IMG/VR virus record: IMGVR_UViG_2703718855_000004
From: a virus
Lineage: Duplodnaviria > Heunggongvirae > Uroviricota > Caudoviricetes
Reading direction: 5' to 3' (one strand)
Length of the DNA stretch: 16,966 nt
Shown: positions 3,022 to 15,548 of the stretch, piece by piece
How positions within the stretch are numbered: the stretch's first letter is position 1
Layout of the letters: each line of letters starts with the position of its first letter
Program-made: the position numbers and the translations under genes
Notes under the pieces: model-generated
Told to the model about the DNA's origin: nothing
Databases searched by the model: none
Seen by the model: only the letters and a program-made list of their open reading frames with translations

Positions 3022-3603
3022 TTACCCTATAGGTGCTACTGGCCATTCAATATCCTGTGCAGTTGACGTATCAACACGGTTCAGCAATACCCGATACTTT
3101 TTCCAGGCTTCCAGCAACAAGGTTTCTTCCTCCGTTGCGATTTCCAGATCCACAGCATCCTGAAGCGGCGCTATATGCTCACTGGCTACCTGCATCAGGC
3201 TGTTTTTTGTTTCTTCCACCTCCCGGATCCGGAACAGTTTTTCTGCTTCCGTATCCTTCACCCAGGCTGTGCCGTTCCACTTCTGAAACTCCCCTTCCGG
3301 GGATAACCAGGTAACATTTTCCGGTAATGAGCCGAGTTCAGAAATAAATAACGCGTCCCCTGATGCCACGTCATAAACTGTTTTACCCCGATGGTCTTCA
3401 ACAAGATGCCACGATGACTCATCACTGTTGAAAACAGCCACGAAGCCAGCCGGAATATCTGGCGGTGCAATATCGGTACTGTTTGCTGGCAGACCTGTAT
3501 GAGGCGGAATATATGCATCACCTTCACCAATAAATTCATTAGTTCCGGCCAGCAGATTATAAATTTTTATGGTCCGTGGTTGTTCACTCATTCTGAATGC
3601 CAT
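3022..3603 (-). CDS. tfa: Tail fiber assembly protein Tfa (lambda-type)
   Basis: 193-aa [47 protein letters not shown]... is collinear over its full length with lambda Tfa as I recall it. Confidence 0.9.
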
Positions 3604-3848
3604 TAACCAACACGGGCAGACTTCACCACATTCACCTCGCGGATGTAGTCGCTGCCCATCGCATTCATGATGGCCCGCTGAAAGGGCAGTGTTTCCCAGC
3701 GCCCTTCCTGGTATGCGGATTCTTTCGGGAGATAGTAATTAGCATCCGCCCATTCAACGGCGGTCTGTGGCTCCGGCCTGAACAGTGAGCGAAGCCCGGC
3801 GCGGACAAAATGCCGCAGCCTGTTAACCTGACTGTTCGATATATTCAC
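3603..3848 (-). pseudogene. Terminase large subunit (gpA) N-terminal fragment, about 81 codons, stop overlapping the tfa start
   Basis: [81 protein letters not shown] matches the first ~81 residues of lambda gpA, then stops. The stop and the tfa ATG overlap (TAATG). The rest of A and all head and tail genes are missing. Confidence 0.85.
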
Positions 3849-4368
3849 TCAGCAACCCCGGTATCAGTTCATCCAGCGCGGCTGCTTTGTTCATGGCTTT
3901 GATGATATCCCGTTTCAGGAAATCAACATGTCGGTTTTCCAGTTCCGGAAAACGCCGCTGCACCGACAGGGGGATCCCGTCGAGAATACTGGCAATTTCA
4001 CCTGCGATCCGCGACAACACGAAAGTACAGAATGCGGTTTCCACCACTTCAGCGGAGTCTCTGGCATTCTTCAGTTCCTGTGCGTCGGCCTGCGCACGCG
4101 TAAGTCGATGGCGTTCGTACTCAATAGTCCCTGGCTGGAGATCTGCCTCGCTGGCCTGCCGCAGTTCTTCAACCTCCCGGCGCAGCTTTTCGTTCTCAAT
4201 TTCAGCATCCCTTTCGGCATACCATTTTATGACGGCGGCAGAGTCATAAAGCACCTCATTACCCTTGCCACCGCCTCGCAGAACGGGCATTCCCTGTTCC
4301 TGCCAGTTCTGAATGGTACGGATACTCGCACCGAAAATGTCAGCCAGCTGCTTTTTGTTGACTTCCAT
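3823..4368 (-). CDS. nohD: Terminase small subunit Nu1 (lambda-type)
   Basis: 181-aa ORF MEVNKKQLADIFGASIRTIQNWQEQGMPVLRGGGKGNEVLYDSAAVIKWYAERD... is full-length and collinear with lambda Nu1. Its 3' end overlaps the gpA fragment start as in lambda. The symbol is chosen by analogy with K-12 cryptic-prophage naming. Confidence 0.85.
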   Translation of the reverse strand: MEVNKKQLADIFGASIRTIQNWQEQGMPVLRGGGKGNEVLYDSAAVIKWYAERDAEIENEKLRREVEELRQASEADLQPGTIEYERHRLTRAQADAQELKNARDSAEVVETAFCTFVLSRIAGEIASILDGIPLSVQRRFPELENRHVDFLKRDIIKAMNKAAALDELIPGLLSEYIEQSG

Positions 4369-6018: not shown

Positions 6019-6308
6019 ATCATAACGTCCGGTTTCTTCCGTGTCAGCACCGGGGCGTTGGCATAATGTAATACGTGTACGCGCTAAACCCTGTGTGCAT
6101 CGTTTTTAATTATTCCCGGACACTCCCGCAGAGAAGTTCCCCGTCAGGGCTGTGGACATAGTTAATCCGGGAATACAATGACGATTCATCGCACCTGACA
6201 TACATTAATAAATATTAACAATATGAAATTTCAACTCATTGTTTAGGGTTTGTTTAATTTTCTACACATACGATTCTGCGAACTTCAAAAAGCATCGGGA
6301 ATAACACC

Positions 6309-6602
6309 ATGAAAAAAATGCTACTCGCTACTGCGCTGGCCCTGCTTATTACAGGATGTGCTCAACAGACGTTTACTGTTCAAAACAAACCGGCAGCAGT
6401 AGCACCAAAGGAAACCATCACCCATCATTTCTTCGTTTCTGGAATTGGGCAGAAGAAAACTGTCGATGCAGCCAAAATTTGTGGCGGCGCAGAAAATGTT
6501 GTTAAAACAGAAACCCAGCAAACATTCGTAAATGGATTGCTCGGTTTTATTACTTTAGGCATTTATACTCCGCTGGAAGCGCGTGTGTATTGCTCACAAT
6601 AA
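6309..6602 (+). CDS. borD: Bor outer-membrane lipoprotein (lambda bor-type, serum-resistance moron)
   Basis: 97-aa ORF MKKMLLATALALLITGCAQQTFTVQNKPAAVAPKETITHHFFVSGIGQKK... with lipobox ITGC. It matches lambda Bor as recalled and lies opposite to the lysis genes as in lambda. Confidence 0.9.
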   Translation: MKKMLLATALALLITGCAQQTFTVQNKPAAVAPKETITHHFFVSGIGQKKTVDAAKICGGAENVVKTETQQTFVNGLLGFITLGIYTPLEARVYCSQ

Positions 6603-8390: not shown

Positions 8391-9473
8391 ATGAAAAAAT
8401 TAACAGTGGCAATTTCTGCTGTAGCTGCATCAGTACTGATGGCGATGTCTGCTCAGGCAGCTGAAATTTATAATAAAGACAGTAACAAGCTGGATCTGTA
8501 CGGGAAAGTTAATGCTAAGCACTACTTCTCCTCTAATGATGCAGATGATGGTGATACTACTTATGCCCGTCTTGGCTTCAAAGGTGAAACCCAAATCAAC
8601 GATCAACTGACTGGTTTCGGTCAGTGGGAATATGAATTCAAAGGCAACCGCGCTGAATCTCAAGGTTCCTCCAAAGATAAAACCCGTCTTGCCTTCGCTG
8701 GCCTGAAATTCGGTGACTACGGCTCCATCGATTATGGCCGTAACTACGGTGTAGCATACGATATTGGTGCATGGACCGACGTTCTGCCAGAATTCGGTGG
8801 CGATACCTGGACCCAAACAGATGTATTCATGACTGGTCGCACCACAGGTGTTGCAACTTATCGTAACAATGACTTCTTTGGTCTGGTTGATGGTCTGAAC
8901 TTTGCTGCTCAGTATCAGGGTAAAAATGACCGCACTGACGTAACTGAAGCTAATGGTGATGGTTTCGGTTTCTCCACTACTTATGAGTATGAAGGATTCG
9001 GTGTAGGTGCAACCTATGCTAAATCTGACCGCACTAATAATCAGGTTATCTACGGTAACAACAGCCTGAATGCATCTGGTCAAAATGCTGAAGTATGGGC
9101 AGCTGGTCTGAAATATGATGCGAACAACATCTATCTGGCTACCACCTATTCTGAAACCCAGAACATGACTGTTTTTGGTAATAACCATATTGCCAACAAA
9201 GCACAAAACTTCGAAGTAGTTGCACAATATCAGTTCGACTTCGGTCTGCGTCCGTCCGTTGCTTACCTGCAATCTAAAGGAAAAGACTTGGGTGCGTGGG
9301 GTGATCAGGACCTGGTTGAATATATTGATGTAGGTGCAACCTATTACTTCAACAAAAATATGTCCACTTTTGTTGATTACAAAATCAACCTGATTGATAA
9401 GAGCGATTTCACGAAAGCATCTGGCGTTGCTACCGATGATATCGTTGCTGTAGGTATGGTTTACCAGTTCTAA
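8391..9473 (+). CDS. nmpC: General porin of the OmpC/OmpF/PhoE family, prophage-encoded (NmpC/Lc-type), apparently intact
   Basis: 360-aa product [23 protein letters not shown]|[23 protein letters not shown]... has a signal peptide, the porin N-terminal motif, and a C-terminal ...GMVYQF with terminal Phe typical of OM beta-barrels. The start was chosen at 8391, not the ORF-track 8331. Confidence 0.9.
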
Positions 9474-11535: not shown

Positions 11536-11725
11536 GCTTCACCTCCGCAGAGGTCAGACGCTGGATGCAAAAAATCGCAGGTGCATTTCTGCATCTGTGA
11601 AGGGAGAAGAGAGTTTGGATTGTATGTGCGCATAAACGTCCCCGTTTAGCGCAGAAGTCACCGGAGTTGTTCAAGCTCCGATGACTTTATTATTACGAAT
11701 TGATTTTACAAAATCAAAAGGTATG

Positions 11726-12178
11726 TTAGTGACGCGGGTCTGTTATTATGCGAGAAGGGTTTCCGTATAAAACAAGGACCTTACTTCCTTGAGTAAATAA
11801 CGGATCTTTGCCTTGAACAATGGTCATTAAATTCCCATTCTCAGTTTCGACAACATATTCCATGCCTGTTTGTTTTGTTGCTGAAGATTCGATTGCTGCC
11901 CCGGCAATACCACCAATGACTGCACCACCAACGGCACCAACGATATTAGAACGAACTCCCCCACCAAGCGCAGAACCAGCGGTTGCCCCCACGGCAGCCC
12001 CAGCAGTCCCGCCTAACGCGGAAGTCCCACTGATATCAACCCCCCTAGCACTAATAACTGTACCAGCGATAGTTCGATTAACCATGCCCACAGAGCCAAC
12101 AGAATAACTATTTGGCGATATATTTTGTGCGCATCCAACCAACACTAAGAGTGGAGCAATTACGAATAATCGCTTCAT
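11726..12178 (-). CDS. Outer-membrane lipoprotein with glycine-zipper domain, SlyB/Pcp-like
   Basis: 150 aa. Signal peptide with lipobox LVGC, then a long Gly/Ala zipper (GGTAGAAVGATAGSALGGGVRSNIVGAVGGAVIGGIAGAAI), then a C-terminal segment GMEYVVETENGNLMTIVQGKDPLFTQGSKVLVLYGNPSRI that aligns by eye with the E. coli SlyB C-terminus. The start overlaps the upstream gene's stop (ATGA). Confidence 0.8.
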   Translation of the reverse strand: MKRLFVIAPLLVLVGCAQNISPNSYSVGSVGMVNRTIAGTVISARGVDISGTSALGGTAGAAVGATAGSALGGGVRSNIVGAVGGAVIGGIAGAAIESSATKQTGMEYVVETENGNLMTIVQGKDPLFTQGSKVLVLYGNPSRIITDPRH

Positions 12179-12735
12179 TTAGCTACCCTAACAGGAAACA
12201 TTGGACGAGAAAGATCAACACTTTCTAATGCTTGCAAGAACTGCGTTATGTTGTTTTGCACCGCGCGATTAACAGATTCGCGTGCTCGAACAATACCGTA
12301 GAATGCGTAACTGGCTGGAACAGTACCGGTAGACTCAATATCCTGCGTATATATAATATCACCATTCGCACGGTTGATTATTTCATACCTTGCAATTGCT
12401 TTAGTTGTCATTGAAACACCAAAAGCAGGAACGTCAAGAGCCAACACTTTAACATTTAAGCTAACCGTATTTGGTGAACTATCACGAAAAATAGTCATTC
12501 GGTCGAGTGCTTCCTGCAAAGATTCACGCCAAATTGGAGTTATAGCCTCCATACCAGCAGTGATATCCCCTTTCTGCTCATCTGGACGAGCAAGTGATAC
12601 CGTTAATGACTTAATTTCAGCATCTATTTTTTTCTGGCTAACTCCCACGTTAGGTGTTGAAAAATTCAATGGTGGCACACTAGCGCAACCTGTTAAAGAA
12701 CCAATAATCATGGCTAATAATATTATCTTCTTCAT
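12175..12735 (-). CDS. Uncharacterized lipoprotein, first gene of a two-gene lipoprotein operon
   Basis: 186 aa. MKKIILLAMIIGSLTGC|ASVPP... has lipobox LTGC and a Shine-Dalgarno-like AAGG 8 nt upstream. I recognise no family. It is translationally coupled to the SlyB-like gene. Confidence 0.75.
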   Translation of the reverse strand: MKKIILLAMIIGSLTGCASVPPLNFSTPNVGVSQKKIDAEIKSLTVSLARPDEQKGDITAGMEAITPIWRESLQEALDRMTIFRDSSPNTVSLNVKVLALDVPAFGVSMTTKAIARYEIINRANGDIIYTQDIESTGTVPASYAFYGIVRARESVNRAVQNNITQFLQALESVDLSRPMFPVRVAK

Positions 12736-12991
12736 AAATTTACCTTATTGTTATAACCAAAGGAATTATAAAGTAAAAAAGTTCACTATCACTAGCCATT
12801 AACGACATCAATTTCAGAGAAACATGGTACTCATTTCCACAAATTTGACACAAGTCATTTTCACCTACATATTCCATCATACTTGATGCATATGTTATTG
12901 AAGCCTCTATCCTATCCGTTCATAATAGCAATAGTTACCCGGGTGATAGTACCTCTATGATTACTCGTCTTTCTGATTGATTGGATTAAAT

Positions 12992-13183
12992 ATGCGCGCC
13001 AAAATTTATCAACTTTCGTTATGGATATTTATTTCGTTTCTAGCGATCTATGCCTTTATTATCTATAAAGGTTCTTATATTGGAGTAGCATTGCATCAAA
13101 TTGCTTGGATCATCATTATTGCCTCTGGCTTGATTGCTAGGCTAACTAAACCAAAGCAAAAACCAATTTCGTCCAATAATTAG
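12992..13183 (+). CDS. Small hydrophobic ORF with two predicted TM helices (hypothetical)
   Basis: 63 aa from the ATG at 12992: MRAKIYQLSLWIFISFLAIYAFIIYKGSYIGVALHQIAWIIIIASGLIARLTKPKQKPISSNN. The ORF track starts at 12977 on a non-ATG codon. There is no convincing RBS, and the surrounding DNA is AT-rich and divergent from the lipoprotein operon. Confidence 0.3.
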   Translation: MRAKIYQLSLWIFISFLAIYAFIIYKGSYIGVALHQIAWIIIIASGLIARLTKPKQKPISSNN

Positions 13184-13340
13184 ACATGTATTAAAAAAAT
13201 GATATTTTTATGTACATAGTCTATTGAAAATTGCCGCGATAAAATGCCAACACCCGCTTCATCGCGGCACTCTGGCGACACTCCTTGAAAATCAGATTCG
13301 TGCTCACCTTTCCTTCCCGTTCTTCCCTGGTAGCGAACCG

Positions 13341-13789
13341 GTAATCATCCGATCTGCGTTACCGAGTGGATGGATGAATGCCGCCGCGAACCATTCAAAA
13401 CCCGCGAAGGCAGAGAAATTACGGGGCCGTGGCAGTCGCATCCCAAACGGATGTTACGGCATAAAGCCATGATTCAGTGTGCCCGTCTGGCCTTCGGATT
13501 TGCTGGTATCTATGACAAGGATGAAGCCGAGCGCATTGTCGAAAATACCGCATACACCGCAGAACGTCAGCCGGAACGCGACATTACTCCGGTTAACGAT
13601 GAAACCATGCAGGAGATTAACACTCTGCTGATTGCCCTGGACAAAACATGGGATGACGACTTATTGCCGCTCTGTTCCCAGATATTTCGCCGCGACATTC
13701 GCGCATCGTCAGAACTGACACAGGCCGAAGCAGTGAAAGCTCTTGGATTCCTGAAACAGAAAGCCACTGAGCAGAAGGTGGCAGCATGA
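13341..13789 (+). pseudogene. bet: bet (Red-beta recombinase), 5'-truncated; only the C-terminal ~149 codons remain
   Basis: From about 13341 the frame reads (G)NHPICVTEWMDECRREPFKTREGREITGPWQSHPKRMLRHKAMIQCARLAFGFAGIYDKDEAERIVENTAYTAERQ...KVAA, matching the C-terminal part of lambda Bet. There is an in-frame stop at 13331..13333 and unrelated sequence upstream. Confidence 0.85.
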
Positions 13790-14466
13790 CACCGGACATT
13801 ATCCTGCAGCGTACCGGGATCGACGTGAGAGCTGTCGAACAGGGGGATGATGCATGGCACAAATTACGGCTCGGCGTCATCACCGCTTCAGAAGTTCACA
13901 ACGTGATAGCCAAGCCCCGCTCAGGAAAGAAGTGGCCTGACATGAAAATGTCCTACTTCCACACCCTGCTGGCTGAGGTTTGCACCGGTGTGGCTCCGGA
14001 AGTTAATGCTAAGGCGCTGGCATGGGGAAAACAGTACGAGAACGACGCCAGAACCCTGTTTGAATTCACTTCCGGCGTGAATGTTACTGAATCCCCGATC
14101 ATCTATCGCGACGAAAGTATGCGCACCGCCTGCTCTCCCGATGGTTTATGCAGTGACGGCAATGGCCTTGAGCTGAAATGCCCGTTTACCTCCCGGGATT
14201 TCATGAAGTTCCGGCTCGGTGGTTTCGAGGCCATAAAGTCGGCTTACATGGCCCAGGTGCAGTACAGCATGTGGGTGACACGAAAAGATGCCTGGTACTT
14301 TGCCAACTATGACCCGCGTATGAAGCGTGAAGGACTGCATTATGTCGTGGTTGAGCGGGATGAAAAGTACATGGCGAGTTTTGACGAGATGGTGCCGGTG
14401 TTCATCGAAAAAATGGACGAGGCACTGGCTGAAATTGGTTTTGTATTTGGGGAGCAATGGCGATGA
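13786..14466 (+). CDS. exo: Lambda exonuclease (Red-alpha), full length
   Basis: 226-aa [68 protein letters not shown]...GEQWR is collinear with lambda Exo over its full length, with only a few substitutions from the recalled sequence. The start overlaps the bet stop (ATGA). Confidence 0.95.
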
Positions 14467-15548
14467 CGCATCCTCACGATAATATCCGGGTAGGCGCAAT
14501 CACTTTCGTCTACTCCGTTAACCTTTATATAAGAAACAATGGATATTACTGCTACAGGGACCCAAGGACGGGTAAAGAGTTTGGATTAGGCCGAGACAGG
14601 CGAATCGCAATCACTGAAGCTATACAGGCCAACATTGAGTTATTTTCAGGACACAAACACAAGCCTCTGACAGCGAGAATCAACAGTGATAATTCCGTTA
14701 CGTTACATTCATGGCTTGATCGCTACGAAAAAATCCTGGCCAGCAGAGGAATCAAGCAGAAGACACTCATAAATTACATGAGCAAAATTAAAGCAATAAG
14801 GAGGGGTCTGCCTGATGCTCCACTTGAAGACATCACCACAAAAGAAATTGCGGCAATGCTCAATGGATACATAGACGAGGGAAAGGCGGCATCAGCCAAG
14901 TTAATCAGATCAACACTGAGCGATGCATTCCGAGAGGCTATGGCTGAAGGCCATATAACAACAAACCCGGTCGCAGCCACTCGCGCTGCAAAATCAGAGG
15001 TAAGGAGATCAAGACTTACGGCTGACGAATACCTGAAAATTTATCAAGCAGCAGAATCATCACCATGTTGGCTTAGACTTGCAATGGAACTGGCTGTTGT
15101 TACCGGGCAGCGAGTTGGTGATTTATGCGAAATGAAGTGGTCTGATATCGTAGATGGATATCTTTATGTCGAGCAAAGCAAAACAGGCGTAAAAATTGCC
15201 ATCCCAACAACATTGCATGTTGATGCTCTCGGGATATCAATGAAGGAAACACTTGATAAATGCAAAAAGATTCTTGGCGGAGAAACCATAATTGCATCTA
15301 CTCGTCGTGAACCGCTTTCATCCGGCACAGTATCAAGGTATTTTATGCGCGCACGAAAAGCATCAGGTCTCTCCTTCGAAGGGGATCCGCCAACCTTTCA
15401 CGAGTTGCGCAGTTTGTCTGCAAGACTCTATGAGAAGCAGATAAGCGATAAATTTGCTCAACATCTTCTCGGGCATAAGTCGGACACCATGGCATCACAG
15501 TATCGTGATGACAGAGGCAGGGAGTGGGACAAAATTGAAATCAAATAA
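14457..15548 (+). CDS. int: Lambda-type integrase (tyrosine recombinase) with replaced N-terminus: 22 codons matching the start of lambda orf60a are fused in frame to Int from about residue 16
   Basis: 363-aa [25 protein letters not shown]|[27 protein letters not shown]... After the junction (nt ~14520) it is near-identical to lambda Int and retains the catalytic residues (R in VTGQRVGD, K in SKTGVK, H-x-x-R in [10 protein letters not shown] and Y in [11 protein letters not shown]). The start overlaps the exo stop. Confidence 0.88.

Follow-up and report, generated by a model that had tools for sequence, protein, structure and literature searches.

The 16,966 nucleotide (nt) stretch of viral DNA recorded as IMGVR_UViG_2703718855_000004, referred to here as the window, carries on its minus strand two overlapping genes for small lipoproteins, here called A and B, which form a conserved two-gene unit that crosses bacterial classes and that lies in the window as cargo of a decayed prophage. 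A belongs to a family without a name and B is a homologue of SlyB. The reading that we favour, to which we would give a probability of about one half, is that A and B make up a stoichiometric outer-membrane complex in which B forms a ring of the SlyB type with A docked upon it, the complex being expressed from the prophage and altering the outer membrane of the lysogen. The features of the two genes are as follows.

12175..12735, minus strand: gene A, a 186 amino acid lipoprotein with an ATG start, of an unnamed family, with a predicted LptE/PqiC/PelC-like fold
12685..12735, minus strand: signal peptide and lipobox of A (MKKIILLAMIIGSLTG-C17), read from the sequence, with Ala at position +2
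12193..12204, minus strand: P-M-F-P motif of A (residues 178-181), a candidate tail for docking on B
12186..12189, minus strand: candidate Shine-Dalgarno-like AGGG for B, read from the sequence, inside the last codons of A and 7 nt before the ATG
12175..12178, minus strand: overlap of the A stop with the B start (ATGA), read from the sequence, indicating translational coupling
11726..12178, minus strand: gene B, a 150 amino acid glycine-zipper lipoprotein of the SlyB family, with lipobox LVGC

In a survey of one genome per species (GTDB), relatives of A were found at 65 loci, in alpha-, beta- and gamma-proteobacteria, in Verrucomicrobiota (Chthoniobacteraceae) and in a metagenome-assembled genome from the Desulfobulbaceae, and at 61 of these a homologue of B (46-75% identical) lies directly downstream on the same strand. 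B also follows A at 33 of the 38 A loci on IMG/VR viral contigs, and these counts decisively dispel the worry, raised in a first-pass annotation of this DNA, that the pair might never be found together elsewhere. The same annotation had described the stop of A as overlapping the start of the gene behind it, as indeed it does, the TGA (12177-12175) lying over the ATG (12178-12176), and this geometry is widely kept; of the 52 loci where both starts could be placed, 36 show an overlap of 4 nt, 8 an overlap of 1 nt and 7 an intergenic distance of 2-4 nt. When B instead of A was the seed of the scan, the same contigs came back together with two more, one with A upstream and the other with a truncated A. 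No third conserved gene was found at these loci, the apparent extra clusters being antisense shadow open reading frames (ORFs) or lineage-specific neighbours, and nucleotide similarity between taxa runs from the start of A to the stop of B, so the unit is exactly two genes. Fusions of A with B are not seen, the longer proteins that contain A having unrelated C-terminal extensions. One A-B locus on an actinobacterial scaffold (L031, Nocardiopsis yanglingensis A18 Scaffold1) shares the coordinates, identity and overlap of the Stenotrophomonas loci, and this scaffold is probably a contaminant of Gram-negative origin.

A second tie between the two genes is seen at the C-terminus of A, where a motif (K/R)-P-M-F-P follows the last helix in a segment that has lower confidence in the structure model and is probably extended. 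PMFP is present at 93 of 94 loci with B, the remaining one having PLFP, and is absent or degenerate at all nine loci without B, which represent about five independent lineages (L048 and L051 from Photorhabdus, L061, L070 and L108-L112). A role of the motif as a signal in the DNA, namely as the ribosome-binding site of B, can be rejected given that 22 different combinations of codons are used for it and that its distance from the stop ranges from 3 to 22 residues, which argues for a constraint on the peptide; in this window the AGGG at 12189-12186 falls downstream of the motif. Taken together, the synteny, the geometry of the coupling and the loss of PMFP where B is missing suggest, at the level of sequence, that A and B would bind one another.

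RefSeq annotates both genes as coding sequences at the coordinates given above. A collection of 5.8 billion proteins contains 512 homologues of A at E<=1e-3, the best 120 of which are listed, are at least 59% identical and come from Klebsiella, Edaphovirga, Bordetella, Xanthomonas, Lysobacter, Stenotrophomonas, Luteimonas and Alcaligenaceae, and 1.84 billion cluster representatives, searched with a profile, yielded 962 matches at E<=1e-3, of which 97 reach E<=1e-30. Identity of A across bacterial classes is 60-70%, and against the copies of K. oxytoca, Edaphovirga and Bordetella the nonsynonymous divergence (dN) is 0.11-0.29 with saturated synonymous divergence (dS), which indicates strong purifying selection; by these measures A is a real gene and no chance ORF. 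Its N-terminus reads MKKIILLAMIIGSLTGC, followed by AS, and has the canonical n-h-c layout of a signal peptide with lipobox L-T-G-C. Cys17 is invariant in 38 close homologues (alignment A1) and 59 distant ones (A2), Gly16 is nearly invariant in A1, and the Pfam model LPAM_1 gives a weak match. Under the Lol sorting rule of the Enterobacteriaceae a lipoprotein without Asp at +2 goes to the outer membrane, and the Ala found there in A (CAS) thus predicts sorting to the outer membrane. A is, as far as acylation and localisation can be predicted, an outer-membrane lipoprotein.

The gene downstream had been called SlyB-like, and this description is upheld by an end-to-end collinear match of B with E. 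coli SlyB (PDB 7ojf, E 1.3e-14 for residues 2-149, 33% identity, hhalign 98.9%), with a score on Pfam PF05433 (Rick_17kDa_Anti / glycine zipper 2TM) of 21.1 bits, just below the cut-off of 24.2. B starts with the lipoprotein signal MKRLFVIAPLLVLVGC and also has Ala at +2 (CAQ). The lipobox, the N-terminal strand segment, the Gly/Ala-rich two-helix hairpin and the C-terminal beta domain of SlyB (PDB 7ojf/7ojg) can all be recognised in it, and the SlyB architecture is wholly conserved. According to Janssens et al., in the summary given by bioRxiv 10.64898/2025.12.22.696046, the glycine-zipper hairpin of SlyB enters the outer membrane and disc-like rings of the protein enclose lipid or outer-membrane proteins during envelope stress. 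The published slyB paralogues of Yersinia are close copies that have no partner. The YfgH-YfgI operon, which also couples a glycine-zipper lipoprotein with a neighbour, was considered as an analogue and rejected, since A shows no relationship to YfgI and the similarity of B to YfgH is marginal.

No family could be named for A from its sequence by the first-pass annotation, and searches of the family databases agree. Neither A nor 58 diverse relatives matched a Pfam family beyond the generic lipid-attachment motif, nothing in NCBIfam came close to its cut-off, and sequence searches of the PDB with A and with the A-family profile returned nothing significant; PHROGs places A in phrog_12521 ('unknown function') and B in phrog_13877. 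The caveat is that newer runs of the Prokaryotic Genome Annotation Pipeline (PGAP) name WP_000720581.1 a 'YajG family lipoprotein'. Structure prediction followed by a fold search, a course that had been recommended for A, gave a two-layer alpha/beta fold of the type of LptE, PqiC/DUF330, PelC and HpaA, with the following neighbours and scores.

XCC0632, PDB 2iqi (Pfam DUF330, PqiC family): 13.1
PelC: 10.7
HpaA-type lipoprotein: 10.4
Flagellar LPHT-ring lipoprotein: 10.1
LptE: 10.1
CsgG: 9.5
PqiC: 9.3
TraT: 7.4

The sequence identity of A to all eight is 6-15%. These proteins are outer-membrane lipoproteins, most of which assemble into Cn rings or act as a plug on the periplasmic side of the membrane. 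The BFVD library of viral structures contains no meaningful analogue of A (TM at most 0.37).

In the window the pair is contained in an insert with a leader of its own, for which the features below were recorded.

11721..13220: low-GC insert (moron) of A, B and a 490 bp leader, between a ren remnant and ylcH/ybcN (ninB)
12743..12746, minus strand: candidate Shine-Dalgarno-like AAGG for A, read from the sequence, 7 nt before the ATG
12765..12792, minus strand: candidate sigma-70-like promoter GTGATA-16-TATAAT from a consensus scan, about 30 nt 5' of the A ATG
12740-12880, minus strand: ORF of 46 amino acids in the leader
12977..13183, plus strand: divergent ORF of 68 amino acids in the leader, resembling a protein with two transmembrane segments, hypothetical in PhiR30_1

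The 1.5 kb insert has a GC content of 33-42% against 50-54% in its flanks, the AT-rich leader (12736-13220, 490 bp) having 33-35%, and with positions 11600-13300 as the query the similarity to other lambdoid phages ends about 120 nt in. Of 5,426 complete E. coli genomes 280 contain an identical 1.7 kb, and the insert is present in just one of 50,697 phage records, that of the 47 kb PhiR30_1, where it likewise lies between ren and ninB. The deviant composition and the absence from related phages support the status of the A-B insert as a phage moron. The earlier description of the pair as a moron therefore stands for this low-GC insert, which has no counterpart in most lambdoid phages, and has to be amended in that the unit is not specific to phages and is chromosomal in several lineages. 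In DLP12 of K-12 (L160, 4316-8252) the slot between ren and ylcH/ybcN is occupied by emrE-ylcJ-ybcK-ybcL-ybcM, and this difference in cargo between DLP12 and the window marks the ren-ninB slot as a cargo hot spot. Neither of the two small leader ORFs matched a family in Pfam, NCBIfam or PHROGs, and both are confined to the cassette as it occurs in E. coli; the ORF of 68 amino acids lies outside the conserved unit.

A different placement is seen at five prophage loci of the Xanthomonadaceae type (L025, L100, L102-L104), where A and B lie on the same strand directly after a cI-type repressor (HTH_3 + Peptidase_S24), about 43 nt downstream of it in L102 (7203-9031), with a CII (CP76) regulator near the pair. 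Lambda carries rexAB directly downstream of cI, and the comparable place of A-B implies expression in lysogens. Elsewhere the pair accompanies toxin-antitoxin genes, transposases, umuDC and type VI secretion system effectors in variable islands, or lies among ordinary chromosomal genes, beside pgaABCD in Xanthomonas and in a conserved neighbourhood in Stenotrophomonas. Plasmids contain essentially no A-B, with three remote matches only.

In the wider family, proteins of at most 45% identity occur as solo lipoproteins in the immunity, nin or packaging regions of phages, without B and without PMFP. Examples of such A-like proteins in phage regions are:

L108, 8001-8543
L109-L111, 7971-8552
L150, 2329-2880
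L154, 887-1429

These solo relatives, together with the unrelated C-terminal extensions mentioned above, suggest an independent activity for the A domain, the core subfamily having become tied to B.

The mechanism that we would propose starts from a horizontally mobile operon in which translational coupling would cause both lipoproteins to be made in roughly fixed proportion. B would then insert its two-helix glycine-zipper hairpin and self-assemble, like SlyB, into rings around lipid or outer-membrane proteins; for these two steps there is direct sequence evidence and homology to draw upon. A may dock through its PMFP tail on the periplasmic domain of B, giving a two-layer assembly in which A would cap, size or target the B ring, and such an assembly may alter a property of the outer membrane of the lysogen, be it robustness towards stress or serum, as with Bor and SlyB, or the exclusion of incoming phage. 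Expression in lysogens is probable from the placement in phages, in or next to the immunity region. A more elaborate version of the same proposal, which we put forward only tentatively, is a hetero-oligomeric assembly of a kind not described before, where a ring of A caps or sizes the ring of B by means of PMFP, and where temperate phages have repeatedly taken up a cassette that crosses bacterial classes, placing it in the cI operon or in the nin region, so as to remodel the outer membrane of the lysogen, for example by caging receptors or outer-membrane proteins for exclusion or stress resistance.

Several observations weigh against a prophage-expressed complex of A and B. The number of sigma-70-like sites in the A-B region is no higher than chance, so the promoter listed above is a match to consensus only, and no clear terminator was found directly 3' of B. 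A search for PhoP boxes gave nothing convincing near A-B, with an overall count at chance level, and PADLOC matched no defence system to A, B or the two small leader ORFs. Several chromosomal copies lie outside prophages, so the role of the pair need not be related to phages, and the distant solo proteins of phages indicate that A may act without B. The loci without B stem from few independent lineages, so that the correlation between tail and B is suggestive and not conclusive. No expression or phenotype data for A-B were found in the literature.

Part of the evidence can also be read in other ways. It would seem unlikely that A is a divergent orthologue or paralogue of YajG which is carried by chance and whose position next to a SlyB-like gene is without meaning. 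BLASTP aligns A with K-12 YajG at 26% identity over 166 residues (pairwise E 2e-4), but the family models tell against membership: Pfam PF03923 (YajG), present in all 120 true YajG matches, matched none of 59 A-family proteins, that of the window included, and NCBIfam PRK11627 gives A 11.4 bits where 242 are required, the match being confined to the signal peptide and first strand. The hhalign alignment with YajG, at 94% probability, is likewise restricted to the first 58 columns, again signal peptide and first strand, and uses a shallow YajG profile with members at least 85% identical, and a hidden Markov model of the A family without signal peptide scores YajG proteins at 1.6-10.2 bits, far under family level, the shuffled controls having a median of -0.5 and a maximum of 7.3. 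The structure model of YajG is of low confidence (predicted local distance difference test, pLDDT, 59). Furthermore the host genome already has yajG, beside ampG, a gene that is never adjacent to A at the 65 genome loci, and the pairing of A with B is conserved across phyla. A and YajG probably share one structural superfamily, and A is no member of the YajG family as defined. With the YajG models failing, and with YajG itself (E. coli b0434) having to our knowledge no established function, the match to a known housekeeping lipoprotein family against which the first-pass annotation had cautioned did not appear. The name 'UDP-N-acetylglucosamine acyltransferase', which is the common one for A in NCBI and UniRef records and in PhiR30_1, is next to untenable as a description of function, since A has the cleavable signal peptide of an exported lipoprotein, matches no hexapeptide-repeat or LpxA model and is predicted to have an alpha/beta sandwich typical of outer-membrane lipoproteins; the name is a propagated annotation error.

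It is also conceivable, if rather improbable, that A by itself is a lipoprotein for superinfection exclusion or receptor masking, in the manner of Cor, Llp or TraT, and that B does no more than help to anchor it in one subfamily. A role of the exclusion type is favoured by the solo relatives in phages and by the repeated occurrence of the pair in immunity regions, whereas the 60-70% identity of A across classes argues for a universal target (lipopolysaccharide (LPS), lipid, or the BAM or Lpt machinery) and not for a strain-specific phage receptor. Against it stand also the non-prophage chromosomal copies among metabolic and poly-N-acetylglucosamine (PNAG) genes, the lack of similarity to known exclusion proteins in PHROGs and PADLOC and the lack of a structural analogue in BFVD. 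Less credible still is that A serves as an accessory of a transport machine, as LptE does with LptD, PqiC with the Pqi MCE system and PelC with PelB, and acts on LPS or lipid transport of the host without B. The nearest solved folds, namely 2iqi (DUF330, PqiC family), PelC, LptE and PqiC, would accord with such a role, as would the reported co-purification of both YajG and SlyB with LptDE, YajG being reported also as partly surface-exposed (PMC12065857). However, no gene for MCE, LptD, PelB, PqiAB or another transporter is conserved beside A, the only constant neighbour being B, there is no Pfam match to LptE or ABC_trans_aux, and the identity to those structures is as low as given above.

The window matches the chromosome of E. 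coli VG48B2 at 100% (1382101-1399066), and the prophage in it is a decayed DLP12/lambda-like element adjoining ybhC. Its left end (1-1517 and 3022-4368) has insertion sequence and integrase fragments and an AraC-family regulator, and its terminase and tail genes are truncated; the fragments and the truncated genes indicate that it is defective. At 13221-13789 there is a deletion joint, where the ren remnant (13221-13343, minus strand) meets a C-terminal fragment of bet/RecT (13343-13789, plus strand), and the entire replication and immunity block (P, O, cII, cro, cI ... gam) that is kept in the intact relative PhiR30_1 is missing from the window. An ORF at 14457-15548 (plus strand) that is labelled 'DUF1317 family protein' overlaps the end of exo; its body we take to resemble lambda integrase with a foreign N-terminus. 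This ORF appears to be a fusion that arose by deletion between orf60a and int, and the prophage would then probably be unable to excise. Three separate loci of outer-membrane cargo lie within this one decayed prophage, namely bor (6309-6602), a porin of the OmpC/NmpC type (8391-9473) and A-B (11726-12735). A perfect PhoP-box direct repeat, TGTTTAGGGTTTGTTTA, is present at 6240-6256 (plus strand), 53-69 nt 5' of the bor ATG, and is the sole match without mismatches in the window, in agreement with borD being a member of the Mg2+/PhoP stimulon.

Our search of the literature found no publication on the A-B pair and nothing that deals with PhiR30_1, the two WP accessions or partnered SlyB paralogues. 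The components are of known kinds, a lipoprotein with an LptE fold and one of the SlyB family, and it is the family of A and the obligate, coupled and mobile arrangement of the two genes that are undescribed. Lipoproteins of the SlyB type have recently been recognised as organisers of stress-induced nanodomains in the outer membrane and have so far been treated as stand-alone proteins. A partnered SlyB paralogue, if our reading is correct, would show that such rings can be modular, targeted or regulated, and A-B would offer a compact two-gene system in which to study ring assembly. Present in about 5% of complete E. coli genomes and carried by an inducible phage, A may be an unrecognised trait of lysogenic conversion, with possible effects on envelope permeability, tolerance of serum or antimicrobial peptides, or susceptibility to phage. 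A family of 962 cluster representatives for which there is no Pfam model deserves a definition of its own and a corrected annotation.

There are a number of known systems with which A and B can be compared. Like Bor, Cor and Llp they are small outer-membrane lipoproteins carried as cargo by temperate phages, bor being found in the same prophage, but no relationship of sequence or fold to these was found, and A-B is a coupled two-gene unit that is also common outside phages. With YajG (192 amino acids) A has in common that it is an outer-membrane lipoprotein of similar size, with the same beta-alpha-beta3-alpha order of elements, the same set of structural neighbours and a weak collinear similarity in sequence; it differs in failing the Pfam and NCBIfam models for YajG and in its context, which is A-B and not yajG-ampG. 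From the DUF330/ABC_trans_aux proteins (XCC0632, 2iqi; PqiC, 8q2c) A is set apart by an identity of 6-10%, by the absence of a Pfam match and by the absence of MCE or Pqi genes alongside it, and from CsgG and TraT by having no transmembrane segment of its own. Unlike LptE and PelC, A has no LptD or PelB for a partner, its constant partner being the SlyB-type protein. Finally, slyB itself is monocistronic, lies beside slyA and is regulated by PhoP, whereas B is mobile and invariably lies behind a partner gene to which it is translationally coupled.

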